Shown here: in pieces, positions 27,263 to 56,493 of the stretch
Layout of the letters: each line of letters opens with the position of its first letter
Position numbering within the stretch: the stretch's first letter is position 1
Assembly: GCF_024298765.1 (NCBI RefSeq)
Contig: NZ_CP101211.1
DNA length: 64,000 bases
Direction: 5' to 3' (one strand)
Source: Escherichia coli
GTDB taxonomy: Bacteria > Pseudomonadota > Gammaproteobacteria > Enterobacterales > Enterobacteriaceae
Made by a program: the position numbers and the translations under genes
Notes under the pieces: model-generated
The model's database searches: none
What the model was told of the DNA's origin: nothing
The model's input: only the letters and a program-made list of their open reading frames with translations

Positions 27263-27275
27263 AAAAGTTACTTTT
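27263..27275. repeat. 13-bp palindrome AAAAGTTACTTTT (backbone motif copy)
   Basis: Exact copy; overlaps the DsbC-like stop codon, 14 bp before the next gene start. Confidence 0.8.
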
Positions 27276-28017
27276 GCGCAGCGCCCATTTGGGTCACCAG
27301 GTTTTCCGGGCTCAGCCACCCCGTAAATAACTGCGGTTTGCCGCTTAGTGTCACCATGGTAGGAGTACCTTGCAGCGGGATTGTTGAGGCCACCTGGAAA
27401 TGCGATTTGATAATGTTTAAGCAAGCCTCATCAGGACGTCCTTCCGGGATAGTTGAAACCGGATTCATCGCTGCATCCAGAGCTTCGTTTGGCTTTGCTG
27501 AACACCAGATTTTGGCCATGTTCCCGGCTACTACCGAGTTCAGTCCTGCACGTGGGAATGCAAGAAACTTAATCGAAATACCGGCATCAAGATAAGACTT
27601 CAGATCATGATGCAGTTTTTGGCAGTATCCACAGGTTATATCGGTAAAGATAGCAAGCCGGTATTTTTCGTTTGGTGATTTGTAGTCGATGGATTTTGTT
27701 TTGGATGCGAATTCCCGGACGCCCATTAAAATGGCCTGCTCAGTGGTGTTTACCACATCTTTACCTTTCACGTGGAATAAGCTTCCGGTAAAAATGTAAT
27801 CTCCGTCTTTGCTCACGTAACTTACCCCCTCCCTGGAAATCACCGTAAAAATATCTTTTACTGGCGAGGGTTCGACGTGCTCGATTGAAAGCCCAATGGC
27901 TTTGAGCTTATCCCGGGCTGCATCTGGCAGTACCATTGTATTAACCGGCTCGGCATTCATCGTGAAGGCGGTACTTAATGAAAGAAGTAATACCGATGCC
28001 TTAATAATTTTTTTCAT
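27268..28017 (-). CDS. DsbC-like disulfide isomerase (CGYC motif)
   Basis: Signal peptide, dimerisation-type N-domain and a thioredoxin domain with CGYC. Confidence 0.7.
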   Translation of the reverse strand: MKKIIKASVLLLSLSTAFTMNAEPVNTMVLPDAARDKLKAIGLSIEHVEPSPVKDIFTVISREGVSYVSKDGDYIFTGSLFHVKGKDVVNTTEQAILMGVREFASKTKSIDYKSPNEKYRLAIFTDITCGYCQKLHHDLKSYLDAGISIKFLAFPRAGLNSVVAGNMAKIWCSAKPNEALDAAMNPVSTIPEGRPDEACLNIIKSHFQVASTIPLQGTPTMVTLSGKPQLFTGWLSPENLVTQMGAAQK

Positions 28018-28164
28018 TTATGCTCCTTGAATCGAGCACTAATATTATCACGCCCAAAAATTCCAGAATTTTGCTTAAACGCTTAAATCAACGGGTAAAG
28101 CCGAAAGAAAGTCGATAGATATATGGGAGAATAGATAAAACGTAGATTCAGTGGAGAAATCGTT

Positions 28165-28704
28165 GTGTTTACACCACCAGCAGATGATGTGAAACCTATT
28201 CCCGTTCCTGATGAGATTTACACTCAGTGCATTACGGATGCCGCCCGCTTCTTCGGAATTGATGCCGAACTGGTTTTTACGTTGTTTGACAATGAAGGCG
28301 GTAAGGTTGGTACTTTCAGCAGGAATACTAACGGCACTTATGATATTGGCCCGATGCAGATCAACTCATCCAATCTGCCTGAAATAAAAAAGCATTTCCC
28401 GACTGTAACGTGGCGGGTTCTGGCTTACGATGCTTGCGCTAGTTTCTGGGTTGGAACATGGTGGCTCTACAGAAAAATTGTTGATCGCAAGGGCAATGTG
28501 TTTGAAGGGATTGCAGATTACAACAGCAAAACCCCAAAGGTACGTGCAAAGTACATATTTAACTTCATGGTAAAGTACAATCGCCGGATCCAGCAGCGTA
28601 ACGGGATGGGTGAGCTTTATCAATGGACCCAACAACCTCCTCGATACAATGGCCATATAGCTAAAAATGTCCCGGAGCAAAACCCGACTCCTGTTGTTAA
28701 ATAA
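28165..28704 (+). CDS. Lytic transglycosylase-like protein (transfer-associated)
   Basis: SLT-like motifs (GPMQIN); size and position typical of a conjugation-associated transglycosylase. Confidence 0.55.
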   Translation: MFTPPADDVKPIPVPDEIYTQCITDAARFFGIDAELVFTLFDNEGGKVGTFSRNTNGTYDIGPMQINSSNLPEIKKHFPTVTWRVLAYDACASFWVGTWWLYRKIVDRKGNVFEGIADYNSKTPKVRAKYIFNFMVKYNRRIQQRNGMGELYQWTQQPPRYNGHIAKNVPEQNPTPVVK

Positions 28705-28786
28705 ATTCAACCTGATATTACAGAAGATCATCGAGTAGCTTGGGTACCCCCCCGCAAAAAATTCGCATAGACTCAGGGGTAATAAA

Positions 28787-29353
28787 TTGTCTTTTTCTGC
28801 AAGAAATATATTTAAGATTCTCTCTTCTTTCTTGATGCAGAAAAGCCCTCTTCATGAAGAAGTATGTGTTCCTGAAGAAACAACAGCTGGTTTATGGGGC
28901 CCTCTCCCTGATTCGCATGTCGTGCTTTTCTTAGATTTCGATGGGGTTTGTCACAGGTGCAAAAATGAAACCTTTGAGCGAATGCCATTGGTGGAAAAAT
29001 TACTGGATAAATGCCCTTCCATGGTGATTGTCATCTCCAGTTCGTGGCGTGAATGTGCCAGTATAACTTACCTGAAATCTCTTTTCCGGCTACCTTATAG
29101 AGACAAAGTCATAGGTGCTACCGATTCGGTATATTTAAAACCTAATCAGTCAGGTGTGCGGGCTGCTGAGTGTGAGGACTTTGTATTTTCACATCGAGTT
29201 AAAGCATTTATCTGCCTTGATGACGACGAATCATTATTCCCGGTCGGTTATCCACATTTGCAAAAAACCAATTATTACACCGGCCTCACCGAATCTGATC
29301 TTGCAGCTCTTAACACCAGGTATCATCTGCTTATGAAACGTTGGGCTTCCTGA
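28787..29353 (+). CDS. HAD-like hydrolase-fold protein, function unknown
   Basis: VLFLDFDGV matches HAD motif I (DxDG). Confidence 0.45.
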   Translation: MSFSARNIFKILSSFLMQKSPLHEEVCVPEETTAGLWGPLPDSHVVLFLDFDGVCHRCKNETFERMPLVEKLLDKCPSMVIVISSSWRECASITYLKSLFRLPYRDKVIGATDSVYLKPNQSGVRAAECEDFVFSHRVKAFICLDDDESLFPVGYPHLQKTNYYTGLTESDLAALNTRYHLLMKRWAS

Positions 29354-29356
29354 ATT

Positions 29357-29368
29357 AAAGTAACTTTT
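29357..29368. repeat. Backbone palindrome copy (12 of 13)
   Basis: AAAGTAACTTTT directly after the HAD-like gene stop. Confidence 0.7.
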
Positions 29369-29460
29369 ACGGAGAGCATGCCCGCATTATCAGTTCTATG
29401 CTTCTCCATTTCTGCCCCGGGTCAAAGCATTGCACAGTTGGAAGAAAACATGCCGGTCTC

Positions 29461-30750
29461 TTAAGCTTGCTGCTCAGTTTGGTTCCGGTGCTGAAAAACC
29501 TGCCAACGGTGCTTTAGGAATTCAGTATTGATGGGTTTACGCAGCGGCTTAATAAACTCTCCTTGATATGCCGCTAAATCATGATCTACCGCCAAAGCTT
29601 CAGCGAGAATGTTAACCTCCAACGTCACCGGATGAATGGCAATCATGTTTGCGTCGAAAAGATCGTGTATATCATGGCGTAAGAGCAACCCATTTGTATA
29701 ATGGTCTACTCCTCCGTTACGATGCTCCATCAGATGAGCAGCCTCAGTGCGCTGGCGCAGTCTAGAGCCTGTAATCACACATTGGTCATAACAGTTGTTG
29801 CGGACGGCTTCTGCAAATGAGGCCTGATCTGGTCGTGTCTCGACAGTTGTCTTACTACCCTTACGCTTACCCGGTACAGTAGTTTCATCAGGAATATTCG
29901 GCTGAAGCTCCTTTTCTTCTATACCATCAGTCTTCATAGCGACCATAATCGCGGCCGGTGGAGATTTAGGCTGATCTTCCTGCGATCTTTCGCGGCCACC
30001 AACTGGATACCCTAGAAAACCCTCAATGATCTCTAGTGGAGGTAATGTAGCGTTTGAACGTGCATAAATAGCGAACTCTGCGGCACGTCCGCCGGGAATA
30101 TATCTACGTACCAGTATTGGAAGAGAGGCTTCTTCATCTGGTTCCTCTTTTTCCGACAGGATTATTCGTTCGGTGAGACGGGCTGAATTTTTTTTCATTT
30201 CACTCAACAGTCTATTGCGTTCTTTTACCTTTCGGTCATTATCCTCCAACATCTTACGATGACTAACCTTAGCCAGATGGTCTTCCAGTTCCTGTATATA
30301 TTCGGGATCGATAGTATCAATTAGACCGAACGCCATCAACCGCTCCCCCCTTGTTTTACAAGATTCTAGCCGAACGCGAATGTACTCCTTACGCTTGGCC
30401 ATCAAATGTTCTTTTTGTTTTTTTTCTCGAATTACACGGAGCTGAGTATTGTAATTAGAATAAACGGTTTCGCTATTCTGCTCTGTCTCTAGAGCAAATT
30501 TTTGTAGGTGTTCACGTAGTTTTTTACGGGTATTTTTGGGGGCATGCATTACGGTACGCTCAATGTATGAGCCTGTGCAGCGTAAAGAAAGTACAGTTTC
30601 AGCATGGGAATAACCAGCATTGAGACGATAGCGGGCAATTTTAAGCAAATTATTAAAGTGTGCACCATTACATATACCTAGTTCTTCCAAGACACGACGT
30701 TCTCTATCATTAATAGATGGATGGTTAATATCTTTTACTTTGTTTGCCAT
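29461..30750 (-). CDS. HNH-endonuclease-domain protein with a long charged N-terminal region
   Basis: C-terminal CYDQCVITG...AHLMEHRNGGVDHYTNGLLLRHDIHDLFD is an HNH-type motif; the N-terminal 300 aa are Lys/Glu/Arg-rich. Confidence 0.6.
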   Translation of the reverse strand: MANKVKDINHPSINDRERRVLEELGICNGAHFNNLLKIARYRLNAGYSHAETVLSLRCTGSYIERTVMHAPKNTRKKLREHLQKFALETEQNSETVYSNYNTQLRVIREKKQKEHLMAKRKEYIRVRLESCKTRGERLMAFGLIDTIDPEYIQELEDHLAKVSHRKMLEDNDRKVKERNRLLSEMKKNSARLTERIILSEKEEPDEEASLPILVRRYIPGGRAAEFAIYARSNATLPPLEIIEGFLGYPVGGRERSQEDQPKSPPAAIMVAMKTDGIEEKELQPNIPDETTVPGKRKGSKTTVETRPDQASFAEAVRNNCYDQCVITGSRLRQRTEAAHLMEHRNGGVDHYTNGLLLRHDIHDLFDANMIAIHPVTLEVNILAEALAVDHDLAAYQGEFIKPLRKPINTEFLKHRWQVFQHRNQTEQQA

Positions 30751-30833
30751 GTCCTGTGTCTCAGTGCCTATTCAGCCGGAACATCTACTACATAAAGAAC
30801 GAGATTGTACAGAAATCAGCTAAGTTTATGAAT

Positions 30834-34892: not shown

Positions 34893-36308
34893 TCAGTTAC
34901 GTGTGCCACGAATACTTTCAGTGAAAGCCTTCCGTTGCAGGCGACGGTTATCCCAGGTTGAAATGACGTCCGAGCTGGTACCGACCTGGCTGTGCGATAG
35001 CTCATAGGCGGCTTTAACCTGTTTTGAGAGATTGTCTGTTAATCGGTTGAGATCATCCCTTTTACCCGACAGCGACTCACTCGGTATGCTCATGGTTGAA
35101 ATTTTGGCCTCAACCTGGCGCAACATGTTGATTACGAGGCTCGTCGCAGCAATAGTGCTTATGTCCTGAATGTATGCGTACCCTTCCGGTGCTTCGAATG
35201 TTTGCAAAGAGTCGATAATGGTCGGGATGCCGATATAGGAGATAATGCGTAATTCATCATCTGAAACACGAACGTCGTTGATGATTTTTTTCTGTACGTT
35301 TAAAAGAAGATCAGAAATGGTATCCTTCAATCCCTTAAAACCACCGTCATTAACTTCTGACATGACAAGGCACTGAGCCTTTCGTGGGGATGATGGATCT
35401 GGTGCCGGAGAACACTTGAGCATTTTAATTGATCCGCCAGCTGGTGGCCCCATGATGTAATCCGTGACAGTCATGGTAGACGGGCGGACTTCCATTCCCG
35501 CTTTTTCGCCTTTGCTATCCCAGTTGATAATGACAGTACCCACGAGAGACATAAGTTGTTCTGCCAATTTATAACCGGATAACTCCGTTACCCCTCCGAT
35601 GTTCATTGTTCCCTTATCAATATCCATGAACGACATATAGAAGAGGTTACCACTGAATTTTTCAGCGAACTCTTCGGGATCCTTTGCTTTAACCTGAGAA
35701 GTGACAGCTTCAGGTGACTTTGTCATCGATGAGCCAAAATCAGGAATGAGACCATTAATCGATCCCAGAATTGAGGCTGGTCCAGAGCTAACTGAGTTAG
35801 CGAACTGGCTTGGCGTACCCACGTTTTCAGAAAGGAAAGAGTAAGTTGCATTGCATGAATCTTTCGCAAATTTATTTAGCGCTTGCAGTTTGTTTTGGAT
35901 GTCATTAATCGTTGCAGCACAGTCAGCACAAATAGCTGAAACAGCAACGTTAAAAGCATAGATAGCCGCACCCTGGGCAATACCACGGGCCACCTGCACA
36001 AGCTGGTCCCCGTTGATCATGCTGAAGGACCCAAGAAAAACGTCAATACCATTACAACCGACAGAAGCTTTTGGAAACGACATGGAAACAAGGTTGGTAT
36101 TAACGTTTGTTGTTCGGTAAGACATTGACCCGCCAACTATGCCTGTACGGGTTGCTGTGGAAAAGGTGGCCGGGCTGGTAGACGTCATCATGCCATTGAA
36201 AATGTTACGCATTGCGTTGTCTGCATTTGCAGTCGGGGCTAAAATTGCAGCACAAACAGAAAGAGACAAAAGTAACTTTTTGAAGTTGAAAACGGCATTA
36301 CTGCGCAT
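34893..36308 (-). CDS. trhH: F/H-type pilus assembly protein TraH/TrhH
   Basis: Signal peptide MRSNAVFNFKKLLLSLSVCAAILAPTANA (start taken at the Met at 36308); about 470 aa. Confidence 0.65.
   Translation of the reverse strand: MRSNAVFNFKKLLLSLSVCAAILAPTANADNAMRNIFNGMMTSTSPATFSTATRTGIVGGSMSYRTTNVNTNLVSMSFPKASVGCNGIDVFLGSFSMINGDQLVQVARGIAQGAAIYAFNVAVSAICADCAATINDIQNKLQALNKFAKDSCNATYSFLSENVGTPSQFANSVSSGPASILGSINGLIPDFGSSMTKSPEAVTSQVKAKDPEEFAEKFSGNLFYMSFMDIDKGTMNIGGVTELSGYKLAEQLMSLVGTVIINWDSKGEKAGMEVRPSTMTVTDYIMGPPAGGSIKMLKCSPAPDPSSPRKAQCLVMSEVNDGGFKGLKDTISDLLLNVQKKIINDVRVSDDELRIISYIGIPTIIDSLQTFEAPEGYAYIQDISTIAATSLVINMLRQVEAKISTMSIPSESLSGKRDDLNRLTDNLSKQVKAAYELSHSQVGTSSDVISTWDNRRLQRKAFTESIRGTRN
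36270..36282. repeat. Backbone palindrome copy AAAAGTAACTTTT, inside the trhH 5' coding region
   Basis: Exact copy encoding FNFKKL of the signal peptide. Confidence 0.75.
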
Positions 36309-37937: not shown

Positions 37938-38450
37938 TTAATCTAATTCTTCTTGAGAATACCTCTCTATGGCTGAAGCAGTTGAAGATAATCTGCAACG
38001 TGGACAATAAGCATCATTTGTCACTGGCACAATGTATGGGCGTTTACATTTTTCGCAGGCACCTAGTTCTTCAATTTCTTTCATAGAAGTAAGGATTTCT
38101 ATTATTTTATTAACTTCCGGTGCGCATACAAAGTATCCCAGATTATGAAGGACACTCATTATTCGGTTGAAGTCAATTTGCCGAAAACTCGCTTCCGGAT
38201 TTATTGGATCAAAACCAAAATAGTTAACTGCGACATCAATAACAGCAGAAAAAGCTCGGCGGTTATCTGTGCGTTTGCTCCAGCCCCGGATACCTTTTTT
38301 GAGTTTTGTTTTTGCACCAGGCTCAAAATCGATATTTTCAGCAACATGATTACCGTACAAAATTCGTATTGTATTTTTATTTGCCCCAAGCGACATAGTC
38401 CTTGCTGCTCGCAATAGAGCATTAGCTTTTGTTTGATCGACCTTTGCCAT
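37938..38450 (-). CDS. FlhC-like regulator with a C-terminal C-x2-C-x15-C-x2-C zinc ribbon
   Basis: CEKCKRPYIVPVTNDAYCPRC has the Cys spacing of FlhC-family activators. Confidence 0.5.
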   Translation of the reverse strand: MAKVDQTKANALLRAARTMSLGANKNTIRILYGNHVAENIDFEPGAKTKLKKGIRGWSKRTDNRRAFSAVIDVAVNYFGFDPINPEASFRQIDFNRIMSVLHNLGYFVCAPEVNKIIEILTSMKEIEELGACEKCKRPYIVPVTNDAYCPRCRLSSTASAIERYSQEELD

Positions 38451-38451
38451 A

Positions 38452-39252
38452 TTAATAATCCTTTAACATAACTTTATTTGTTAAAGTGTTGAACACATCC
38501 TGACGGTGACTGGTGAACATAGTGTCATAACGTAATAGTTCCATCAAATCATCACTAACTTTTCCTAACCGGATGTCAGCAGACAATTCATAAGCCCAGG
38601 CAAAAACTTTCGTTTTAAGTGAAACACTCTCTTCAATATGCCCTTGTGAGAAAGCAATTGTACGTGGGAAAAGAACGACATCGTTAATTGTTTTTAACGA
38701 TGAATAACCAATGTCTTTAATAGCATCAGCTGTAGTTGGTTTTAAACCAAAGAAAACACTTACAAACTCTGGTGCGAGCATTGAGATAAAGAACACCTGC
38801 ATAAAGTAGTCATTCTGTATATCAACACATTTAGAACGCAACTCATGAATCTTCTTGGGATTATAGATATCCACTGTACCATTCAGAAAAGTCACTTTTT
38901 CACCGGCATCGTAAATACCATAGTCAATATCATTTGTATCATATTCACGAATTACATTGGAATCACCGTCCAAGACCGCAGAAAAAAACCTCTCCCATGT
39001 AATTTCCTTTCCGAGTGTACGCGGAACCAAAAAACTACCTGGACGTGTTTCCACTTCAAAAGCTAAATCAGCGGCTGTACTAAATCCTTTCCCAAATAGG
39101 CGACGCTGGAGAAGAGGAGTCCCAGTTTGATATGCAGAAGATCCATGCACAGGCAATAACATTAAAAATGCACGGTAACTACGAATAAGCGAAATCTCAG
39201 TGCGGAAAAGTTTACCGAGTAAGCTACGAGTTAAATTATCAGATTCTGACAT
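38452..39252 (-). CDS. Hypothetical protein co-transcribed with the FlhC-like gene
   Basis: 266-aa ORF ending 1 bp before the FlhC-like start. Confidence 0.45.
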   Translation of the reverse strand: MSESDNLTRSLLGKLFRTEISLIRSYRAFLMLLPVHGSSAYQTGTPLLQRRLFGKGFSTAADLAFEVETRPGSFLVPRTLGKEITWERFFSAVLDGDSNVIREYDTNDIDYGIYDAGEKVTFLNGTVDIYNPKKIHELRSKCVDIQNDYFMQVFFISMLAPEFVSVFFGLKPTTADAIKDIGYSSLKTINDVVLFPRTIAFSQGHIEESVSLKTKVFAWAYELSADIRLGKVSDDLMELLRYDTMFTSHRQDVFNTLTNKVMLKDY

Positions 39253-39329
39253 GTGCTGATTGTCCTTGCGCCATTACAATTGTTCAAATCTTCAACATGG
39301 ATTTTTTGTTAGGTGTTCGGTAGGGTGAA

Positions 39330-39342
39330 AAGTAACTTTTAG
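39330..39342. repeat. Backbone palindrome copy AAAAGTAACTTTT
   Basis: Exact copy about 80 bp upstream of the 266-aa gene start. Confidence 0.8.
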
Positions 39343-39349
39343 TATTTTC

Positions 39350-39372
39350 TTAAGGCTTGAATAAGCCTTAAA
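39350..39372 (+). repeat. Inverted repeat TTAAGGCTT-gaata-AGCCTTAA
   Basis: Perfect 9-bp arms, 8 bp downstream of a 13-bp palindrome copy. Confidence 0.5.
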
Positions 39373-39578
39373 TCTATCCCTTCAACCACACCGCTTACTT
39401 GTAACACTTTTTAACCAAACTGACCAGAATTTTATCAAAATTTCTTCGCATGCTAACGAAATGTGAAGCGATTAAAAAAAAACCTAAATCCAGCCCCTCC
39501 CAACGTTGGATTAGAATAACGACGTCTTTCACTGACCGTCATAAACTGACATTTTTACTTTTCATCAACCTCATGCTT

Positions 39579-39744
39579 ACATAGGATCACTAAACAAAGA
39601 AAAGTGACCCTATGAATACCTCACATAGGGTCACTTATGTTTGAAAAGTGACCCTATGTAATGTCGTCATAGGGTCACTTTTTATAAAAGTGTCACTATG
39701 GACAAAGTTCCATAGGGTCATTTTTTTTGGAAAAGTGGCACTAG
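39579..39744 (+). repeat. Array of about 8 copies of CATAGGGTCACT / AGTGACCCTATG in inverted pairs (candidate oriT or operator)
   Basis: Pairs at 39603-39635 and 39647-39679 (9-bp spacers), degenerate pair at 39689-39722, extra half-sites at 39579-39590 and about 39733-39744. Confidence 0.7.
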
Positions 39745-39813
39745 ATATATGTATAACTTTAATAGAGCAATGCACATTATCAAAAGCAATAATCCACAAT
39801 GGTCATTCCCTCA

Positions 39814-39825
39814 AAAGTAACTTTA
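39814..39825. repeat. Backbone palindrome copy (12 of 13)
   Basis: AAAAGTAACTTT about 190 bp upstream of the relaxase operon. Confidence 0.7.
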
Positions 39826-40010
39826 GAGGGTAGCGATGGAAGTGAGGCTAAACTCGCTGTTACTGTTTCTGAAGGCCCCTCCCGAATGGGGGAAACAGCG
39901 AGTGCATTACATCTGTTCAATTCCCTCATCAAAGAGCATTCAAAAATCTTCTGTTCGTGAAAAAAAACGGAAATTTCCTCCGGTATAGTAATTTCACATC
40001 AGGAGGCGTC

Positions 40011-40496
40011 ATGAGTAATTCGAATCTTATAAGTTCTATAGAGCTAACACGTAAAAATTTACGTGCTCAGATTGAAGGTTTGCGTGTTGAGGCTGAAGAT
40101 CTCATTACAAAATACTGGATCAAGTGGAAGGAACGAAACCACCAAGAGATTAACCTTACCCGACATAGCAAAGTTCCAAAGAGGGAGTATCTGGGTTCTT
40201 ACGCACCAAAAGTTGAGCTAATTGGTAATGCCAGAAAAGTAACGATCACTTGGCATCAGTTCAGCCCTTATAAAACAAGAGCGCCTAGTCACATGTCAAA
40301 ACGGGTGCAACCAATGAAAAGTGGAAAATATTCTAAGAACTGTTTTGTAAACCATGCCAGCTGGGAATACGAAATGATTTCTGAAACGGAAGCATTGCTG
40401 GAGCCTTACAGAGAAATGCTTGAGCTCTATCATTCAGCATATATCGAACTTGGACGAAAAATCCGTCAATACTCAAAAACTAAGGTGGCACAATGA
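40011..40496 (+). CDS. Hypothetical protein, first gene of the relaxase operon (possible relaxosome accessory factor)
   Basis: AGGAGG ribosome-binding site before the ATG at 40011; the supplied ORF starts earlier at 39957. Confidence 0.45.
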   Translation: MSNSNLISSIELTRKNLRAQIEGLRVEAEDLITKYWIKWKERNHQEINLTRHSKVPKREYLGSYAPKVELIGNARKVTITWHQFSPYKTRAPSHMSKRVQPMKSGKYSKNCFVNHASWEYEMISETEALLEPYREMLELYHSAYIELGRKIRQYSKTKVAQ

Positions 40497-41233: not shown

Positions 41234-44200
41234 ATGATGATGAATTTCAGGGCGCTGTATTTATGTATTAAACGGATTTTGGGGATATTCTCATCTCAGG
41301 AGAATGATGCAACCTCTGTAATGATTGAGGATATATCAAGCCTCTCTCCTTTTGCGCAGATTCTAGGAGATCAGAAGTACACTGTTCCTGATCATCCAAA
41401 TCCAGAAGTCCTGAAATTCATCGAGTATCCAACTCGTCCGACGGGCATACAGACATTTAATGAACAGTCAATCCTGTCTCTGTATCGGGAAAAGCTGCAC
41501 TCAATTTCAATGATGTTAGCTATCAGCGATAGCGACATCAGGGACGATGCATATACATTTACTAATTTAGTATTAAAGCCCTTGGTTGAATATGTTCGCT
41601 GGATACATCTTTTGCCAGCTTCCGAAAATCATCATCATAATGGTATTGGTGGGTTACTTTCTCACAGCCTGGAAGTGGCCATACTCTCTTTAAAAAATGC
41701 GCATCACTCAGAACTGAGACCAATCGGATATCAAGATGAAGAAGTAGTCCGTAGAAAAGTATATCTCTATGCTGCGTTTATCTGTGGTTTAGTCCATGAT
41801 GCCGGAAAGGTTTACGATCTCGATATTGTAAGCCTGAATTTAGCTAGTCCGATCATTTGGACGCCAAGCTCACAAAGTCTTCTTGACTGGGCACGTGAAA
41901 ATGACGTGGTTGAATACGAAATCCACTGGCGAAAGCGTATTCATAATCAACATAATATCTGGTCCAGCGTTTTCCTTGAGCGAATCCTAAACCCGGTATG
42001 TCTTGCATTTTTGGATCGGGTAAATAAAGAACGTGTTTATTCAAAAATGATCACCGCCCTAAACGTTTATACTGATGGGAATGACTTTTTGTCTAAATGC
42101 GTGAGGACCGCTGATTTCTATTCTACTGGTACAGACCTTAATGTTTTACGTGACCCTATCATGGGTCTGCGTTCTAATGATGCAGCAGCAAGGGCCATTA
42201 GTACCATCAAGCACAACTTTACCAGTATCAATATCAACAATTACAATGCTAAGCCTATGCACATCATTATCGTAAATGGTGAGGTATACCTTAACGAGAA
42301 CGCATTCCTTGATTTTGTTCTCAATGATTTCGAATTACATAAATATAACTTCCCTCAGGGAGAGGCTGGTAAGATGGTATTGGTAGAATCCCTAGTTCAA
42401 CGTGGTTACGTCGAGCCCTATGATGATGAGCGTGTCGTTCACTACTTCATTCCGGGTATCTATTCGGAAAACGAAATATCAAACATCTTTAGAAATGGGA
42501 TAGGGAAACTAGAATTCTATAACCTTCTTAAGCTAAGGTGGATTGGTTTAATCTTTGATTCCTATAAAATCCCTGACTCAGTGCCGGGTCTTTTTAGCGT
42601 TAATGCCAATAAAGACTTTATTTACATTGACGAGCAAAAAACAGTTACTGAATACAGAAGACCAGTGCCCGGTCGGGACGCTATAACTAAAATTACTGAT
42701 ACTGTTGAGACGGCTGTTCTTAAGGTTAATGATTTAGGCCGCTCCACTGCCTCTATTGATGTTGATATACATTCTAAGAAAAATGAAGGCTCATCCGACG
42801 ATTTTGAGAAGAAAGCCGAAAGTGATAATGAAATTGATAATGACACGCAGATAGTTAAATCTGAGGGTGAGGAAGCAGCTGATCCTGTCATTCCTGATAT
42901 AGAAGAAAGTGAAGATGAATCGGCAAAGGACACGGAATCCCATGTCCTGGTCAACCAACTTCATGAACTCCTTTTAAGCGCTCCACTTTCCAATGACTAT
43001 ATAGTGTGTGTAGATGCTGTCCCCTACCTCAACATAGATGCCACTATGGCATTGCTGCCGGGATTAGATGAAAAAGCATTTAGTGAAGAGCCCTATTTCC
43101 AACTGACATTCAGAGAAGGCTCTCTCGATGGAATGTGGATAGTAAGGGACATTGACGATCTGCGTTTAGTCCAGCTCGGCGATAACTGCGCCGGGTTCCA
43201 GCTCACCTATCATGAGCCAAGAAGGCCAACAACTTTAAAGTCACTTTTCAATACTTCTATGTATCAGGCATTAGTGATTAATGATGAGTCTTCTGTTGAA
43301 AACTCTGCCCCACGTCCAAAGCAAACGCTTGAGCTGCCTCCCCCACGTGTAAATGCAGTCGAAGAACATTCTGGCGACGTGGAATATCATGGAACCGATA
43401 GTGCATCCGCGACTGGTCCGCTGAAAACTGAGGCTGTGGAATATGAACATTATCAACATCTTTTTGAGGAAGAAGATGAAGAGCATGAGATCATTGATTA
43501 TACCGATTTCACACAGCTTAGTGTTTCTCGGCCAGAAGTCGGTAGTTGTGCAACAAGCTCTTCGGTCCATAATGAAAAGCTTCTCCCCGAGCCGTCAGAA
43601 TTACCAGAACTTAACCGAGAACAGAACGCTGATCCCCAGGGTACGATTGAACGCTCTATGGATGTTTCTGTAGGACAAGAAAACTCAGAACCAGATACTG
43701 AGGGTAACTGCCCACCACCAGCTGAAGTTGTGTATTCCCAGACCGAAGCAGCCGCAACCAGTGTGATGGCAAGTGAAGAGCCCGCCTTACCTCCTGTACT
43801 TGAAGAATCAAATGGAGAGCATGCGCCCACAGACGCTAAGGGGCATCATCTTTCGCCAGCACTGGCCAGACTGTTCGCCCCAACAGCACCGGTAGAAAAA
43901 CAAAATCCCAAGCGCAACCGGAATAAATCATCGGACAAAGCAGAAGTACAAAAACCAGCATCACCTGTTTCTGGTCACAATCTGAACAGTAAAGTCTTTG
44001 CAACTACTGAATCAGACCAAAATGGTGAATTCTCGCTTATAAGCGAAGGTGACGTTACAGAGCTTGAATTTGTAGAAATTGCGTCAGTACTGCATCAAAT
44101 TCTGTCCAAAATGGAGGTGGCGTTTAAAAGAAAGCGCAAAAACAGATTTATGGTAAGTACTCCTAATACTCTCTATCTGACCCAATCTTGCGTGGAAAAA

Positions 44201-44386: not shown

Positions 44387-46470
44387 TGTCAGATTCGAAG
44401 AGGACTAACCTCCATGCACAAGAGAATTTTTATCGGCCTATTCTTGAGTATCGTAGTGCCTCAATACTTTTGATTTGTTCGGTTTCTATGCTTTATATGG
44501 GACTTTCTTCAGACGGACTGGACATCGCCCCAATAGTTCTGTTCACCTCAATATTGCTTTTTTTGCTGTGCCTTTATCGTTGCAAAACAGCAGCGCCATT
44601 CTTGATGGCTCATTGGCGTGTATTCAAGCGACATTTCATGTTCGTTAGTCTTGATTCACTGCGTGTAATTAACAAAAGTAACTTTTTCTCCAATGAGCGA
44701 AAGTATCGTCAACTGGTTCAGGATTATCAAAATAAAAATAAGGATATACCCGAGCGAAAGTCCTATTTTTGTGATGGGTTTGAGTGGGGCCCGGAACATG
44801 CGGATCGGGCATATCAAATAGCTAACCTCTCCAGTGATAAACGTGAGATCGAGTTGCCATTCGTCTTCAACCCAATTAAGAGACATTTTGACGCAATGGC
44901 TCGTAAGATGGGCGGCAGCAATGCAATTTTTGCTGTGGAACGTAGGGAACCCATATTTGTAACTGAAGACAATTGGTTTGGTCATACTCTGATAACCGGA
45001 AACGTGGGTACCGGGAAAACGGTGCTACAGCGTTTACTAAGCATTAGCATGCTTCATCTTGGTCATGTTGTTGTTGTCATAGATCCAAAGAACGATGCAG
45101 AGTGGCGAGAATCTCTAATGGAAGAGGCTAAGACCCTCGGTCTTCCTTTCTATAAATTTCATCCTGGCCAGCCAGCATCTTCGGTCTGTATTGATGTCTG
45201 CAACACCTATACTAATGTTTCTGACCTAACATCTCGTCTTTTGAGCTTGGTGACAGTTCCCGGTGAGGTTAACCCATTCGTTCAGTATGCCAAAGCTCTC
45301 GTTTCCAATGTGATTTCCGGGCTTTCTTACATAGAGAAAAAGCCTTCTATTTATCTGATTCACAAGAACATGAAAAGCCACATGTCTATTGTGAATCTTA
45401 CAGTCAAGGTAATGGAGTCATGTTACGCGAGATATTATGGTTACGATGTCTGGACCGAAAAAGTTAAGTACGTCGCTAACGAAACCTTGCCGGTACGTTT
45501 CAAGCGTCTCGCTGAATGGTTTACGGCTCATTTCATGAATTACGAGGGGTCCGAACAAATAGACTGGTTAGATACTGTTTCCCAGCTTATTGATTACTCA
45601 ATGTCCGACCCAGAGCATATGGCTAAAATGACCGCAGGTATTATGCCTGTTTTCGATATGCTCATTGAAAAACCTTTAAATGAGCTTTTATCTCCTAACC
45701 CGAACTCAGTATCATCAAGAGAAATTGTAACAAGCGAAGGGATGTTCAGCACTGGCGGGGTGCTATACATTTCGCTTGATGGCCTTTCAAACCCCGATAC
45801 AGCAGCTGCTATTTCTCAATTAATAATGTCAGATCTGACCTCCTGTGCCGGTAGTCGCTACAACGCTCAGGATGGTGATATGTCAGCTAATTCCAGGATA
45901 AGTATTTTTGTTGATGAGGCACACTCAGCCATTAACAACCCTATGATTAACCTTCTGGCGCAGGGTCGTGCAGCGAAAATTGCACTGTTTATTTGCACCC
46001 AAACCATCTCCGACTTTATTGCTGCGGCAAGTGTTGAAACTGCCAATCGAATTACGGGGCTCTGCAACAATTATATAAGCTTGCGAGTCAACGATACTCC
46101 TACTCAGACGCTTGTTGTAGAGAACTTTGGTAAGAGTGCGATAAGCACAAATATGGTCACTTATACGACCGGTTCAGAAACATCTTTGCCGCATAATAAC
46201 TTCTCAGGTTCAATCTCAGAAAGAAAGCAGACAACTTTAGAAGAGAGTATTCCAAAGGATCTCTTGGGTCAGGTCCCTATGTTTCACATAGTTGCCAGGC
46301 TTCAAGATGGCAGGAAGGTTGTAGGCCAAATCCCTATTGCTGTTGCTGAGAAACAAATGAAGCCAAACACAACTCTGTCGGAAATGCTTTTCAAGAAGGC
46401 CGGAAAAGTTACTTTGCGTCAAAATCTCGATATCAAAAATCTTAATAAATTTCTAAGGAAGTTGCATTGA
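44386..46470 (+). CDS. traG: Type IV coupling protein (TraG of H-type plasmids; TraD/VirD4 family)
   Basis: N-terminal transmembrane helices and Walker A GNVGTGKT; 694 aa. Confidence 0.75.
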   Translation: MSDSKRTNLHAQENFYRPILEYRSASILLICSVSMLYMGLSSDGLDIAPIVLFTSILLFLLCLYRCKTAAPFLMAHWRVFKRHFMFVSLDSLRVINKSNFFSNERKYRQLVQDYQNKNKDIPERKSYFCDGFEWGPEHADRAYQIANLSSDKREIELPFVFNPIKRHFDAMARKMGGSNAIFAVERREPIFVTEDNWFGHTLITGNVGTGKTVLQRLLSISMLHLGHVVVVIDPKNDAEWRESLMEEAKTLGLPFYKFHPGQPASSVCIDVCNTYTNVSDLTSRLLSLVTVPGEVNPFVQYAKALVSNVISGLSYIEKKPSIYLIHKNMKSHMSIVNLTVKVMESCYARYYGYDVWTEKVKYVANETLPVRFKRLAEWFTAHFMNYEGSEQIDWLDTVSQLIDYSMSDPEHMAKMTAGIMPVFDMLIEKPLNELLSPNPNSVSSREIVTSEGMFSTGGVLYISLDGLSNPDTAAAISQLIMSDLTSCAGSRYNAQDGDMSANSRISIFVDEAHSAINNPMINLLAQGRAAKIALFICTQTISDFIAAASVETANRITGLCNNYISLRVNDTPTQTLVVENFGKSAISTNMVTYTTGSETSLPHNNFSGSISERKQTTLEESIPKDLLGQVPMFHIVARLQDGRKVVGQIPIAVAEKQMKPNTTLSEMLFKKAGKVTLRQNLDIKNLNKFLRKLH
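44675..44687. repeat. Backbone palindrome copy AAAAGTAACTTTT, inside the coupling-protein gene
   Basis: Exact copy in coding sequence. Confidence 0.75.
46405..46416. repeat. Backbone palindrome copy (12 of 13)
   Basis: AAAAGTTACTTT about 50 bp before the next gene start. Confidence 0.7.
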
Positions 46471-50858: not shown

Positions 50859-51143
50859 TTATTTAAGCTGGTCATCGTCTCTGGCCAGCATAGCCCAACC
50901 ATTCGACTGGTTTTCGCGGGAGTAAGGATTCATTTCAAAATAACTATCTACCGCGTCGCTGTCCGCAACAGAACTGTTGTTAGCTCTCTTTGAACCCTGA
51001 ACCACTACAGCATCAACCTCTGCGGCTTTCCCGTTGCGCTGTACCAGGATTTTAACCGTCTTGGGCTTACGTCTTGCGAGCAGTTTGTTGGCGATAAAAA
51101 GCACAACAATCCAGGCCAAAAGCACGTATAAAAATTTATTCAT
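50859..51143 (-). CDS. Small membrane protein
   Basis: N-terminal transmembrane helix; AAGGAGGG ribosome-binding site. Confidence 0.5.
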   Translation of the reverse strand: MNKFLYVLLAWIVVLFIANKLLARRKPKTVKILVQRNGKAAEVDAVVVQGSKRANNSSVADSDAVDSYFEMNPYSRENQSNGWAMLARDDDQLK

Positions 51144-51305: not shown

Positions 51306-51318
51306 GAAAGTTACTTTT
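51306..51318. repeat. Backbone palindrome copy (12 of 13)
   Basis: GAAAGTTACTTTT upstream of the 94-aa membrane protein gene. Confidence 0.7.
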
Positions 51319-52767: not shown

Positions 52768-53310
52768 CTAACTGGCGAGCCTGCGAAAGTCAGACTCGTT
52801 GTTATAAAGCGGCATATCGTAAGCGGTGTCTGAAATGAACATGCGGATCTGCTCAAGCGTCATGCCACAATGAAAACGGTTTACGCTCACATTGGCCCGG
52901 GGGAAGTCAGCACAAAACGCATTCAAAACATTTTCATGGACAATGCCAATGTTGATCAACGCAGCTGGCCCGTTGTCACGGAAGGATACGACACGGAATC
53001 CCCCATACCAGCCTGAATGGGAGAAAAATGAAAATGCGCCGGATGCCAGACCATTAGACAGGTCATAGCGCAATTTCCCGCACAGAGACTGGCTGTCTTT
53101 GCTGTACACGCGATTAATGAAAATACCGGGACCAACTTCTACCGGCTGCTTGTTGCTTGCTAAACACGGAAAGCCCACCAGCGAAACCTCCCTTTCTCCT
53201 GACCAGTTTACCTGATACCCGGCAGTGAGAAAGTCCGTCAGTTCTACGCCAGAAAGAGCATTAATGGCCGCGATATCGGTAGTCAAAATATTTACGTTTT
53301 TCATATTCAT
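52768..53310 (-). CDS. Hypothetical protein
   Basis: 180 aa. Confidence 0.4.
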   Translation of the reverse strand: MNMKNVNILTTDIAAINALSGVELTDFLTAGYQVNWSGEREVSLVGFPCLASNKQPVEVGPGIFINRVYSKDSQSLCGKLRYDLSNGLASGAFSFFSHSGWYGGFRVVSFRDNGPAALINIGIVHENVLNAFCADFPRANVSVNRFHCGMTLEQIRMFISDTAYDMPLYNNESDFRRLAS

Positions 53311-53371
53311 CTCATCTTTATTCTAAAGTGCGTTTTTTGTCTATCAGCCCGAGGATTGAAAATTTGAATAT

Positions 53372-53809
53372 TTAATGTGACAGATAAATACCTGTCACTT
53401 TTTCAAAAACAGCCTGTAATTGAATATCGAGAGAGTTCATTTTAAAATCCACCAGCTCAGCTTTATTATCGCAAACCAAATAAAAATAGGAGTCAAATGC
53501 GTCTGTATCTTCATCTTTAAAAATACGGAAGGAATTAATTTTATCATGCCCTTCAAATTCGGCATGAATACCATAGCGAACCGAGCCGTCATCGAACTGA
53601 ACAACCCGTCGTACAGAATTAATCCGGACGTACTGTTTTAAGGCCCTCGCGAAATCGGCATTTAACGCCAACGCTCGTAAGATTGAATCAGCGGTTTCAT
53701 TCTGCTTTTTACGATCGTATTCAAATATCCCACAGCCGGTGTTACGAAAGACCGGCTGAAGAGCATTAACCAGGTTGAAGGAATCCACGTTTCTGTCGTT
53801 TCTGTACAT
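53372..53809 (-). CDS. Hypothetical protein
   Basis: 145 aa. Confidence 0.4.
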   Translation of the reverse strand: MYRNDRNVDSFNLVNALQPVFRNTGCGIFEYDRKKQNETADSILRALALNADFARALKQYVRINSVRRVVQFDDGSVRYGIHAEFEGHDKINSFRIFKDEDTDAFDSYFYLVCDNKAELVDFKMNSLDIQLQAVFEKVTGIYLSH

Positions 53810-53853
53810 GAGATATCTCCTGCCCCTCCGCTATACGAAGGGGCTTGATAGGG

Positions 53854-54150
53854 TTACTGCCAGGCTGCGATCACTTCTTCGCACTGGAAATGAGATAAGC
53901 ACTGCTGGAGTAGAAGAGCCAGCACCGCTGTGTTAGGGACGCGATTGTTACACCACGCGTTGAAAAGCAGCTGCCATGGACCGGCATAATACCCGGCCAG
54001 TTTCTTTTTTTGTTTAGCTGTACGGCAGCGGGAAATGGCCTGCTGATAAAGGCTTTCATTCTCATCACCAGCCCGTTTTTGCAGAGTGCGATAAATATAC
54101 GAATAAAGACTGTCAGAACAGTTTGAAGCGTACGCCAGTTGTTTTTTCAT
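53854..54150 (-). CDS. Hypothetical protein
   Basis: 98 aa. Confidence 0.4.
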   Translation of the reverse strand: MKKQLAYASNCSDSLYSYIYRTLQKRAGDENESLYQQAISRCRTAKQKKKLAGYYAGPWQLLFNAWCNNRVPNTAVLALLLQQCLSHFQCEEVIAAWQ

Positions 54151-54270
54151 AATACCTCCTGTTTAGAAGTATTATATGTAAACAGCCTCAGCGGCTAATA
54201 ACCCGTAGCAATATAATTTGCATTTTTTCTATTTCTGAAGACGCTTTTTAAATTAATATTTACTGAGTTA

Positions 54271-54549
54271 TCACAACTTATTATTCTTCCCGTCTGCTGT
54301 TTTATTAATCCCCCAGTTAGTAATCACGCCAAGTCGGCGCAATTTTTCACGTTGTTCATAAATAAAAAAATCGCCAAGGCAGTCTTTTAAAACTTCACTA
54401 TCCTGATATTTTATTTTTTGAAGCATCCTCGCAACTATGGCGCGTTTCAGGAATATGGCTGCATCAGACTCAAGCATTTGTGAGGACTGTCTGACGGTCT
54501 CCTGCATGTCGACGATACTGCTGAGCTTTCGTCTGACCACGCTTAGCAT
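54271..54549 (-). CDS. Hypothetical protein
   Basis: 92 aa. Confidence 0.4.
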   Translation of the reverse strand: MLSVVRRKLSSIVDMQETVRQSSQMLESDAAIFLKRAIVARMLQKIKYQDSEVLKDCLGDFFIYEQREKLRRLGVITNWGINKTADGKNNKL

Positions 54550-54733
54550 AGTGTCCGGGAACCGCTTAGCGGCTGAATGTAACCCGCAACAACGTTACGC
54601 ATTGTTTTACTCACTGCAATTTTCCATTTAAGTCTGTTTGTTCCACCAGCTGCTAACATCAGCGTTATTCATCCTGAGGTTTCGCCCGCGATTGACAGAT
54701 CAGAGGCAGCATGGATGAAATTGCCAGAGTAGA

Positions 54734-55015
54734 TCACTGCATACGCGAATAGTGGTTTGTATTCAGTTCTGCGTTTGCCTGCTTTTCCAGTGCTGTCATA
54801 ACCCGGCGGAGCATCGCCAGAGCCTGAACAGGCGAGCTCCCAAACTGCACTTTCACTTCAGCCGTATCATGATCCTGAATCAGGTCGAGTATATTCACTT
54901 CGATCCCTGCCCCGTTTTCATCTTTTGCCGTGCACTGAATACTTACCCGGGTCACCGAATCCGTCAGGACTGGCAGTGGGTTAGTTTTGTCTACGTTGAT
55001 AACAGCCTTCTTCAT
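54734..55015 (-). CDS. Hypothetical protein
   Basis: 93 aa. Confidence 0.4.
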   Translation of the reverse strand: MKKAVINVDKTNPLPVLTDSVTRVSIQCTAKDENGAGIEVNILDLIQDHDTAEVKVQFGSSPVQALAMLRRVMTALEKQANAELNTNHYSRMQ

Positions 55016-55080
55016 TGCCCTGTTTCCCCTTGTCCTGAAAAAGTTACCGACCCGTCCGGATGGAGGGGTCGGTCAGAAAA

Positions 55081-56265
55081 TCATGACTGTCCCTTGTTCA
55101 TCTTATCAGCATGCTTACGCAGGTACTCTTTCAGGTCAGCATGAGCGTTGATGATATCGTTCATTTCATCATTGGTCAGAACAAGCGTGTAAGTATCAGT
55201 ACTGACAGATTCACCTTCTTTAAGCTTGGCTTCTTCAGCAATACGTTCAAAAATCGGGATCGCGGTGTCTGCAATGACGGTCACAGTCTTTTTGTTCAGA
55301 ACGCTGGACATGGAAGGTGCTTTACCTGCCGGGTTCTGTTTAGGAGCGCTGTCCTTTGGAGCTGGAGCCGGTTCCTGTACCGGTGGCGTATCCAGCGTCT
55401 CCGTATTGCTTTCATCGTTCAGTTGATCCGGTACCGGGGTGTTATCGGTAGTATCATCTGCCGGTTGCTCAGCACCGATGTTTTCCGGAGTCTGCGGATC
55501 TGCCATGCGCTCTTCTACCTTGGCAGCTTTGACGAATTTCAGCGTGTTTTTCGTCGCCTTGCCATAGATGGAGATCGCTTTGTTGATGTTATCTACCGCA
55601 TCCTCACCGCTGTACATATACTCGTCCAGTGCAACGTACATGCTCACCTGATCGCTCACAAGCATGGTCTGTAGTTCAGAAGGCAGGTCCAGTACGCGAA
55701 CCATCTGGCGAAGATGCTGCTCTGATTTACCACGTTTTTTTGCCAGTTCCGCAAAGGTCTTAGGCTCTTCTTTATCTTCAACCAGACGCTTAATTGAAAG
55801 CGCTTCAGCTACGACAGACAGCGCCAGGTTGGAGTTGCCGGTCAGGGTGAAGAGTTCTGCTTTTGAAGCGCTACCGCGAAACTCTTCGCAGCGAATACGA
55901 GTAATGCGTTCACGCCCTTCTGCTTCCAGCTGGCGGTTTGCAATAGCGATGGAACGGATACGGCAAGCCCCCTGACGCAGTACAGGTACGCCATTAACCA
56001 TCTGAACAACGATAGGCGTCACGCTGAACGGGTCTTCCATGTAGGCATCGGCCAGGCTGTTCAGGTGTTCCACAACGTGAGGCATTGAATAGTAGAGCTC
56101 GCCCATACCGGCCGTGCGGGTGTTAAAGCCTTCCTGCTCTACAACAACCGAAGGGTCAATGATAAGGCCGTTGCCTTTACGGGCACCGTTACCAGTGCGT
56201 TCCAGGTAACCACGAAGGCTGATTTCGTTGCTGTTGTTTTTTACTTCAGTTTCGATTGCGGACAT
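55081..56265 (-). CDS. ParB-like nuclease-domain protein with an acidic, Pro-rich linker
   Basis: N-terminal region ...FNTR...IVVQMVNGVPVLRQGACRIRSIAIA resembles the ParB/Srx fold (GxRR-type motif); 394 aa. Confidence 0.5.
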   Translation of the reverse strand: MSAIETEVKNNSNEISLRGYLERTGNGARKGNGLIIDPSVVVEQEGFNTRTAGMGELYYSMPHVVEHLNSLADAYMEDPFSVTPIVVQMVNGVPVLRQGACRIRSIAIANRQLEAEGRERITRIRCEEFRGSASKAELFTLTGNSNLALSVVAEALSIKRLVEDKEEPKTFAELAKKRGKSEQHLRQMVRVLDLPSELQTMLVSDQVSMYVALDEYMYSGEDAVDNINKAISIYGKATKNTLKFVKAAKVEERMADPQTPENIGAEQPADDTTDNTPVPDQLNDESNTETLDTPPVQEPAPAPKDSAPKQNPAGKAPSMSSVLNKKTVTVIADTAIPIFERIAEEAKLKEGESVSTDTYTLVLTNDEMNDIINAHADLKEYLRKHADKMNKGQS

Positions 56266-56356
56266 TTTTGTTCTCTTTTTTGGTTGGTTGTTTAACTGCG
56301 CTACAACACAACAATACCAGGTTCGACATTTTTCCTAATAGGTTGCGGAGAAGAAA

Positions 56357-56369
56357 AAGTAACTTTTTT
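56357..56369. repeat. Backbone palindrome copy AAAAGTAACTTTT
   Basis: Exact copy about 90 bp upstream of the ParB-like gene. Confidence 0.8.
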
Positions 56370-56480
56370 TAAAAATTTTCCTGAGGCAATACTACTCGAT
56401 CCGTCCGTTTTAAATCTTCACAACAGTGGGCCGTTTTTACGTTTAAGCAAAATAACTGGTTCAGAAGGTGACTCAGAGAG

Positions 56481-56493
56481 AAAAGTTACTTTT
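56481..56493. repeat. Backbone palindrome copy AAAAGTTACTTTT
   Basis: Exact copy about 215 bp upstream of the ParB-like gene. Confidence 0.8.

Follow-up and report, generated by a model that had tools for sequence, protein, structure and literature searches.

A dispersed 13-bp palindrome as a putative protein-binding site of the IncHI plasmid backbone, with a ParB/KorB-like protein as candidate binder

Introduction

In a 64,000-nucleotide stretch of Escherichia coli DNA (contig NZ_CP101211.1 of assembly GCF_024298765.1; the whole stretch is hereafter called the window), one 13-bp palindrome, AAAAGTWACTTTT, recurs at separate places. A sequence-only reading of the window had proposed that these copies form an operator for a plasmid-encoded dimeric regulator or a site for some other backbone-specific DNA-binding protein. 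The locus raises the questions of whether the palindrome is a protein-binding site at all, which protein binds it, and what this binding would do for the plasmid.

Between 36 and 46 kb the window shows 100% identity to many IncHI2 plasmids, such as pG17-1 of Enterobacter hormaechei (NZ_CP079936.1), and judged from its sequence it is the Tra1/oriT region of an IncHI2 plasmid. The Tra1 region comprises dsbA/dsbC-like genes, trhG-trhH-trhF, trhY-trhR, oriT, mobI(traH)-traI(mobH)-traG(traD), and small uncharacterised genes. Plasmid pG17-1 (264 kb in total; typed as IncHI2A, MOBH and MPF_F) encodes CTX-M-55 and many further resistance genes. It was used for whole-plasmid comparison together with the IncHI1 plasmid R27, both being assembled completely. 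IncHI1 and IncHI2 plasmids spread multidrug resistance in typhoid Salmonella, Enterobacter, Salmonella and E. coli, and most of their genes are uncharacterised. IncHI gene expression is controlled plasmid-wide (PMC7366339), and this control has so far been described without a defined cis element or a global DNA-binding regulator.

Results

The palindrome is abundant and confined to the plasmid backbone

The window contains six exact copies of AAAAGTWACTTTT, while dinucleotide-preserving shuffles gave an expectation of 0.00. When up to one mismatch was allowed, 12 sites were found against 0.18 expected, and the largest number in any shuffle was 2. Setting the central base to N added a 13th site (Table 1). 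The six exact and four 12-of-13 copies counted in the sequence-only reading are correct and even understated, and its claim that they are not due to chance is borne out by the shuffles. All window sites lie between 26.3 and 56.5 kb and, as had also been claimed, none lies in the resistance region of the window (1-25 kb). The flanks of the sites share nothing among copies, leaving a self-contained 13-mer, and thus the palindrome is not part of a longer repeat.

At the whole-plasmid scale, pG17-1 carries 46 sites that match AAAAGTNACTTTT either exactly (24) or with a single mismatch (22), every one of them in the backbone, and R27 carries 50 (26 exact and 24 one-mismatch). A third-order Markov model predicts about 0 exact and about 1.2 one-mismatch sites. 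In the same whole-plasmid scans, zero sites were found in the large resistance and insertion sequence (IS) regions of pG17-1 and in the Tn10 and citrate segments of R27. Two-mismatch variants are about twofold over expectation, suggesting about 70 functional sites per plasmid. The copies of the earlier reading fall in what we recognise as the Tra1 region; the recurrence itself stands, but the set spans the whole backbone, with about 50 sites, or about 70 when the two-mismatch excess is included. An unbiased census of 5-N-5 palindromes returned AAAGT-N-ACTTT with 50 and 46 copies, the runners-up having 10 (IS-borne) and 4. The central base is A or T in 80 of the 96 sites of both plasmids, and the adjacent outer positions weakly favour G/C (S-AAAAGTWACTTTT-S). 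The half-site AAAAGT by itself is not unusual outside the palindromes.

Table 1. Coordinates of the palindromes and related features (window positions unless another replicon is named)
Feature	Replicon	Position	Strand	Context
AAAAGTGACTTTT, G centre	window	26362..26374		between the convergent ends of genes 25988-26335 (+) and 26395-26655 (-)
AAAAGTTACTTTT, exact	window	27263..27275		minus-strand TAA is the stop of thioredoxin-fold gene 27268-28017; 26 bp before start of next gene; R27 counterpart at orthologous place is GAAAGTCACTTTT
TAAAGTAACTTTT, 12 of 13	window	29356..29368		3 bp past HAD-domain gene 28835-29353, convergent with HNH endonuclease gene
exact site	window	36268..36280		inside trhH, 34 bp from its start, at trhF/trhH junction; exact at orthologous R27 position
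AAAAGTCACTTTT, G- or C-centred	window	38887..38899		within trhR; kept in R27 with one mismatch
exact site	window	39328..39340		82 bp upstream of trhR start codon, left edge of oriT; exact in R27
four direct repeats of ~44 bp, each beginning GAAAAGTG	window	39600..39745	+	oriT; conserved in R27
AAAAGTAACTTTA, 12 of 13	window	39813..39825		192 bp upstream of mobI/traH, right edge of oriT, 485 bp from the 39328 site
TAAAGTCACTTTT, found with N at centre	window	43236..43248		within MobH relaxase gene (traI)
exact site	window	44674..44686		within coupling-protein gene (traG/traD); exact at orthologous R27 position
AAAAGTTACTTTG, 12 of 13	window	46404..46416		3' end of coupling-protein gene, 60 bp before next gene; identical one-mismatch form in R27
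GAAAGTTACTTTT, 12 of 13	window	51306..51318		intergenic, 169 bp upstream of small gene 50859-51143 (-)
type A gene (WP_001272970.1)	window	55081..56265	-	394-aa orphan protein of predicted ParB/KorB fold; orthologue of R27 R0104
exact site	window	56355..56367		96 bp upstream of ParB/KorB-like (type A) gene; conserved in R27
exact site	window	56481..56493		222 bp upstream of ParB/KorB-like (type A) gene; aligned R27 position is GAAAGTAACTTTT
AAAAGTACCTTTT ahead of type B gene	pG17-1	9343-9682		~80-96 bp upstream of ATG
AAAAGTACCTTTT ahead of type B gene	R27	44851-45190		~80-96 bp upstream of ATG
AAAAGTACCTTTT ahead of type B gene	L014	4497-4836		~80-96 bp upstream of ATG
aCTTTCACATGTGAAAGt	pB557-NDM (IncC)	291, 3875, 4334, 9649, 12985, 24029, 27444		all intergenic or at gene ends

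Selection acts on the palindrome as DNA

Among the 20 pG17-1 sites with alignable flanks, 17 keep the motif at the orthologous R27 position. Identity between the two plasmids is 90% within the sites and 73% in the flanks, and most mismatches fall on the free central base. In the window, 9 of the 13 sites keep their position in R27, and the pair flanking oriT has the same 485-bp spacing in pG17-1 and R27. Conserved intragenic sites are present in trhI, trhH, traG, tus and a VWA gene; the intragenic sites are distributed over the three reading frames (12, 6 and 5) and the encoded peptides differ. Since the sites are conserved amid diverged flanks and the intragenic ones are read in three frames, selection acts on the DNA itself, and the palindrome is under purifying selection at the DNA level. 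The search of related backbones that the sequence-only reading had called for thus shows sequence and position of the motif to be conserved between IncHI2 and IncHI1, and the motif also occurs in more distant relatives.

These results make it hardly credible that the copies are something other than a protein site, such as a mobile or repetitive extragenic palindromic (REP)-like repeat, a terminator hairpin, or a by-product of peptide sequence or codon bias. Some copies do lie at gene ends (27263, 29356 and 26362) and the motif contains TAA, in favour of such readings. However, the flanks are unrelated and no longer repeat is present, a hairpin is not feasible with a 6-bp A/T-rich stem and a loop of 1 nt, and the intragenic copies encode different peptides in three frames while orthologous positions are kept where the flanks have diverged. 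The lack of conserved flanks and of a G+C-rich hairpin stem also separates the IncHI sites from REP elements, miniature inverted-repeat transposable elements and terminators. Scans of window positions 39200-40050 and 56200-56750 found no terminators at the sites. Based on these observations, the palindrome is strongly supported as a conserved, putative protein-binding site of the IncHI backbone.

Position of the sites relative to genes and transfer promoters

Six of the 13 window sites are intergenic, four of them ahead of gene starts and two where convergent genes end. A seventh overlaps a stop codon shortly before the next gene start, and the remaining six are within coding sequence, some beside gene junctions. 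The earlier summary, in which most copies sat upstream of operons or at gene ends and three inside coding sequence, is only roughly right for the window. In pG17-1, 21 of the 46 sites (46%) are intergenic, compared with 19.4% of the backbone, which corresponds to a 2.4-fold enrichment (p=4.7e-5), and most of these intergenic sites are located 60-250 bp upstream of a start codon.

The position of several sites near transfer operons brings in a further possibility, namely that they belong to the TrhR/TrhY activators, the HtdA repressor or some other, unrecognised regulator of the plasmid, and account for the derepression that htdA mutants show across the plasmid. In R27, 139 of 181 expressed genes, most of the non-tra genes among them, are derepressed at 25 °C when htdA is mutated, an effect that is not known to depend on any cis element (PMC7366339). 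The sites flank oriT ahead of the R and H operons, and another precedes trhA, with which the AC operon begins. However, F/AN (upstream of htdA) and Z, two promoters under TrhR/Y and HtdA control, lack a site in pG17-1 as well as in R27. The R operon, on the other hand, bears a site and yet is HtdA-independent, and the reported effect of HtdA on TrhR/Y is at the protein level (PMC7366339). In addition, no recognisable DNA-binding domain was found in TrhR, TrhY, the 160-aa 'transcriptional regulator' of Tra2 or HtdA, the last searched against NCBIfam only, and activator boxes do not usually lie inside genes, as about half of these sites do. We consider this explanation improbable.

The sequence-only reading had named an FlhC-like operon next to one of the sites. 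This operon is trhR/trhY, and the label is unsupported, since sequence searches against Pfam, NCBIfam and PDB gave no FlhC/FlhD match. Activator boxes of the AcaCD/SetCD (FlhDC-like) kind, as in MOBH elements, were rejected on the same ground, together with the absence of the motif from the F/AN and Z promoters and from the IncC DNA examined.

With respect to local gene content, the IncHI2 window carries an HNH endonuclease gene (29461-30750) between trhG and the HAD-domain gene. The equivalent gap of R27 has no HNH gene, and its short intergenic stretch holds two palindromes (R27 117435 and 117517).

A ParB/KorB-like protein is the candidate binder

As the sequence-only reading had stated, two copies (56355 and 56481) precede a gene for a ParB-like protein, which we call type A. 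Sites precede the type A gene in all lineages examined: two in IncHI2, two in IncHI1, five in a Klebsiella MOBH plasmid, five in K. grimontii and two in Yersinia. At least 12 metagenome contigs carry type A loci with five or six upstream sites each. In the Klebsiella, K. grimontii, Yersinia and metagenome lineages, type A shares 36-67% identity with the copy in the window. In R27, expression of the orthologue R0104 is steady between 25 and 37 °C, with a level of about 2200 units (PMC7366339, supplement).

In the type A protein, an N-terminal ParB-type domain (with GFNTR and RQGACRIR motifs) is followed by a helix-turn-helix (HTH) around residues 149-209, by a linker predicted to be disordered (256-318) and by a C-terminal domain. 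It matches Pfam HTH_ParB (1.5e-5) and phrog_1033 'ParB-like partition protein' (1.6e-21), and a profile of 107 family homologues matches Spo0J/ParB (1e-17), Noc (5e-14) and KorB (1e-7) in PDB. The AlphaFold2 model (predicted local distance difference test score, pLDDT, 85) has as its top Foldseek match RK2 KorB in the KorA-DNA complex 8QA9 (E 1.2e-7, template modelling score 0.65), followed by CTP-bound ParB and Noc. As modelled, the type A product is a protein of the ParB/KorB fold. R50, G99 and R102 are invariant in the 107 family members, and N144, H184 and R186 are invariant within type A. R102 and N144 occupy the motif positions of KorB R117 and N146, which are required for cytidine triphosphate (CTP) binding and clamp closure (PMC11790492). 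Of the nucleotide-binding elements, the GxxRxxA-type motif (RQGACRIRS) and the conserved Asn (N144) are present, and the remaining box III is degenerate.

We suggest, at about an even chance, that a dimeric DNA-binding protein encoded by plasmids of the IncHI superfamily binds AAAAGTNACTTTT specifically, with type A/R0104 as the most likely binder; the putative target site written out is AAAAGTAACTTTT. The core idea of the earlier reading, a backbone-specific site for such a protein, gains support from conservation, from distribution and from the clustering of sites ahead of this ParB/KorB-fold gene.

Several observations weigh against this proposal. First, over half of the pG17-1 sites are inside genes, so that transcriptional control is only a proposal. 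Second, consensus scans and sigma-70 scoring gave no constant distance between sites and promoters, the predicted promoters being weak. A simple set of operon operators, as the sequence-only reading pictured it, agrees with the intergenic enrichment but is too narrow on these two counts; conserved intragenic sites without promoter spacing fit a KorB/ParB-type network of loading sites better. Third, box III of type A reads GNSNLALS by eye and not ENLQRxxL, leaving CTPase activity uncertain. Fourth, no parA or korA adjoins the type A gene, unlike korB, and its neighbours are small hypothetical genes without a family match. Finally, unrelated metagenome systems use the identical 13-mer, as Rep_3 iterons or in arrays by HU-related genes, and therefore the sequence alone does not identify the binder; such reuse is expected, since 6-bp half-sites have only 4096 possible sequences. 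A metagenome scan for paired sites gave, among the matches listed, no alternative binder for IncHI, and most of these matches are unrelated systems reusing the palindrome.

A site also precedes the gene of a paralogue, and this counts against type A as well. The paralogue, type B (387 aa; WP_000114859.1; R0042 in R27), is encoded beside a dam-like methylase gene outside the window and could be the binder, alone or together with type A. It is of the same family (phrog_1033, 3.3e-28; GFNTR and RQGHCR motifs), and a site is found 80-130 bp upstream of type B genes, as the variant AAAAGTACCTTTT in pG17-1, R27 and pCF10 and in canonical or near-canonical form in two distant metagenome relatives (L020 and L019). 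Moreover, expression of R0042 ranks among the highest in R27, and IncHI derivatives without type A retain the motif. These type A-less plasmids, however, are recent deletion derivatives without relaxase, so that retention of the motif in them says little; H56 is likewise an IncHI2 deletion derivative. Furthermore, the recognition helix of type B varies (KSPTTISSL, RQVSSIRQM, TSEQNIRSL) while the motif is constant, whereas type A keeps H184 and R186, and only one, usually imperfect, site is present upstream of type B, compared with two to six for type A. We therefore regard type B as an unlikely binder.

A possible architectural role of the sites

A ParB-like protein might instead bind the sites in an architectural role, with the sites as centromere-like anchors or anchors like the Noc binding sites (NBS), serving compaction, positioning or membrane tethering of a 200-270-kb plasmid, or complexes at oriT and oriV. 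Noc binding sites are scattered over the chromosome, and the roughly 50 IncHI sites, evenly spread and about half of them intragenic yet conserved, are nearer to this scatter than to a classical operator set. The absence of a fixed promoter geometry would also agree with such a role, as would the sequence profile, in which Noc and ParB are as close as KorB. Half-site arrays with a 44-bp period in oriT and degenerate AAAAG-N3-CTTTT elements interleaved with the RepHI1A iterons in R27 point in the same direction. In oriT, three of the four direct repeats are inverted repeats with 15-bp arms (AAAAGTGACCCTATG-N9-CATAGGGTCACTTTT), and at their outer ends these are identical to the half-sites of the palindrome.

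On the contrary, the 2.4-fold intergenic enrichment with sites typically 60-250 bp upstream of start codons, the clustering of sites before the protein's own gene, a typical sign of autoregulation, and the repressor KorB as top structural match argue for a role in gene control, and two partition systems, ParAB and ParMR, are already present on IncHI plasmids. An architectural, Noc- or parS-like role is in our opinion a serious alternative, at a low probability.

Two specific forms of a partition role find little support. The palindrome does not behave as the parS centromere of ParABS, since no pG17-1 site lies in the 7.1-19.1 kb around parAB (16.0-18.3 kb), and Par1 ParB is a weaker candidate binder, since it has its own array of 249-bp repeats without the motif. 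This array consists of about 13 tandem repeats (pG17-1 12124-15594) in an unannotated 4.4-kb segment between trhC and parA, and it is probably the Par1 centromere or an incompatibility region.

Replication initiators and iteron-like repeats

We also considered binding of the palindrome by dimers of a Rep_3 initiator (RepHI1A, RepHI2 or a similar protein), in which case the scattered sites would titrate the initiator. In small metagenomic plasmids the exact 13-mer is the core of four or five tandem 21-bp iterons upstream of RepM/RepE-type genes, and IncHI plasmids encode Rep_3 proteins, with a site just downstream of rep in pG17-1 (986) and R27 (39446). But the IncHI iterons have a different sequence, CATTCATgCAAATGCTTTT, no motif is found upstream of the rep genes of pG17-1 and R27, where a Rep operator would be expected, and the open reading frames (ORFs) next to the metagenomic arrays, Rep genes included, gave no tblastn match in either plasmid. 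The motif thus differs from a Rep_3 iteron or operator both in sequence and in place, and this explanation is very unlikely.

The origin region of R27 (38331-39008) consists of 44-bp repeats beside a RepB-family rep gene. Each repeat is the iteron CATTCATgCAAATGCTTTT followed by a degenerate AAAAG-N3-CTTTT, and AAAAGGCACTTTT occurs three times at a 43-bp period. This arrangement suggests that the motif-binding protein may act also at oriV.

The metagenome contigs L039, L072, L074, L100, L107, L110 and L142 are small RepM/RepE-type plasmids or carry three-copy arrays. In the RepM/RepE-type plasmids, the four or five tandem 21-bp iterons are AAAAGTAACTTTTTTCGGGTT, with the exact palindrome as core. 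Other contigs have three palindromes at a 22-bp period by HU-related and primase-helicase genes. Both kinds of system are unrelated to IncHI.

Distribution beyond IncHI1 and IncHI2

The motif is likewise dominant in a Klebsiella plasmid of MOBH/MPF_F type (20 cores within 40 kb), in a Citrobacter IncHI1B plasmid, in a Yersinia intermedia contig (seven palindromes in 21 kb), in a K. grimontii contig (eight in 21 kb) and in metagenome contigs with relatives of IncHI backbone genes. In one of these metagenome contigs, L076, an exact pair (190 and 231, within 190-243) lies about 0.9 kb upstream of an ORF (1126-2244) for an immunoglobulin-like protein that is 36% identical to the IncHI2 one. This pair loosely mirrors the pG17-1 pair 251278/251343, which is located 140-230 bp upstream of the flanking genes. 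From these sequences, the placement of sites with respect to genes may be shared by DNA far outside IncHI1 and IncHI2.

The IncHI palindrome is absent from the IncC DNA that we examined. The IncC plasmid pB557-NDM has its own 16-18-bp parS-like palindrome, aCTTTCACATGTGAAAGt, in seven copies within 40 kb, one of which is 62 bp upstream of the IncC parA, and by its sequence this set seems to be a dispersed-site system of similar kind in a different family of MOBH plasmids. A 312-aa homologue shares the IncC plasmid with this palindrome and with a KorB-domain ParB; with two candidate proteins, the palindrome is assignable to neither.

Discussion

The closest parallel to the IncHI sites is found in the IncP-1 plasmid RK2. 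The KorB operator OB is TTTAGCSGCTAAA, a 13-bp palindrome with a free central base. The IncHI motif is likewise a 13-bp palindrome with a free centre and many backbone copies, both promoter-proximal and distal; the candidate type A, like KorB, is a plasmid-encoded HTH protein of the ParB family whose own gene is preceded by sites, and the oriT region is flanked by sites. The two systems differ in the motif (AAAAGTNACTTTT versus OB TTTAGCSGCTAAA), in the number of sites (about 50-70, compared with 12 in RK2) and in gene context, the type A gene being an orphan with no adjacent incC/parA or korA. Type A is also only about 19% identical to KorB, and the C-terminal domain of its model is mainly helical, while that of KorB is SH3-like. 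KorB is a CTP-dependent sliding clamp that acts up to 1.5 kb away (PMC11790492).

Other ParB-like systems share some of these features. ParB of NAH7 activates conjugation genes from dispersed parS copies (PMC12421886), and the IncHI system resembles it in having a ParB-fold protein, a palindromic site and copies near transfer genes and oriT. It differs from ParB-parS systems in that the motif is not the parS consensus and the sites are not clustered by parAB. Noc of Bacillus is also of the ParB family and has, with its NBS, dozens of palindromic sites over the replicon, many of them intragenic, whereas intergenic DNA is favoured by the IncHI sites. For membrane tethering of DNA, Noc uses an N-terminal amphipathic helix; none is evident in type A, although no dedicated test for it was made. 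VirB of the Shigella virulence plasmid is described as an orphan ParB-like CTP-binding regulator that acts from inverted-repeat sites (PMC10245682). It resembles type A as an orphan ParB-like protein on a large, H-NS-silenced enterobacterial plasmid, but has few sites and counteracts silencing, and the VirB and IncHI sequences are unrelated. IncHI plasmids are likewise under H-NS/Hha control (PMC7366339).

Based on these comparisons, we propose the following model. A type A dimer would recognise the palindrome through its HTH, in analogy to KorB and the 13-bp OB operators of RK2. The two to five sites ahead of the type A gene would mediate autoregulation, and the about 50 sites over the 200-kb backbone, roughly one per 4 kb, would serve as operators or loading sites acting on nearby promoters, among them those of the divergent pair trhR and mobI/traH flanking oriT. 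Type A might be a nucleotide-dependent sliding clamp, and sliding from loading sites would explain the conserved intragenic sites. In this model we infer the identity of the binder, its use of CTP, and a transcriptional outcome (silencing or anti-silencing) rather than a purely architectural role.

A wider form of the model is possible but tentative. In it, one clamp of the ParB-CTPase type would use 50-70 palindromes to silence, or to de-silence against H-NS, the whole 200-kb backbone of IncHI plasmids and of wider MOBH/MPF-F megaplasmids of Klebsiella, Yersinia and other genera. The resistance islands would be exempt, and the system would be tied to oriT and to the RepHI1A origin via the arrays with a 44-bp period.

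The searchable literature, including that on R27, contains no description of the motif or of R0104 that we could find; the original genome reports of R27 and R478 are outside this scope, and an early mention there is possible. The R27 genome paper is that of Sherburne et al. 2000. The motif had not been recognised as a known operator in the sequence-only reading either, which agrees with its absence from this literature. Dispersed operator or loading sites of the ParB/KorB type are already known as a kind, and we rate the IncHI motif itself as apparently new.

If the wider model is true, IncHI plasmids would have a KorB-like system several-fold larger than the IncP-1 paradigm, and KorB-type control would not be peculiar to IncP-1. 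The palindrome could then provide the cis element missing behind the plasmid-wide, temperature-dependent regulation of R27. With a conserved 13-bp site and a named candidate protein in hand (R0104 and orthologues), the question becomes directly testable, and the system might offer one point of attack at which gene control, transfer or stability of these multidrug resistance plasmids could be disturbed.

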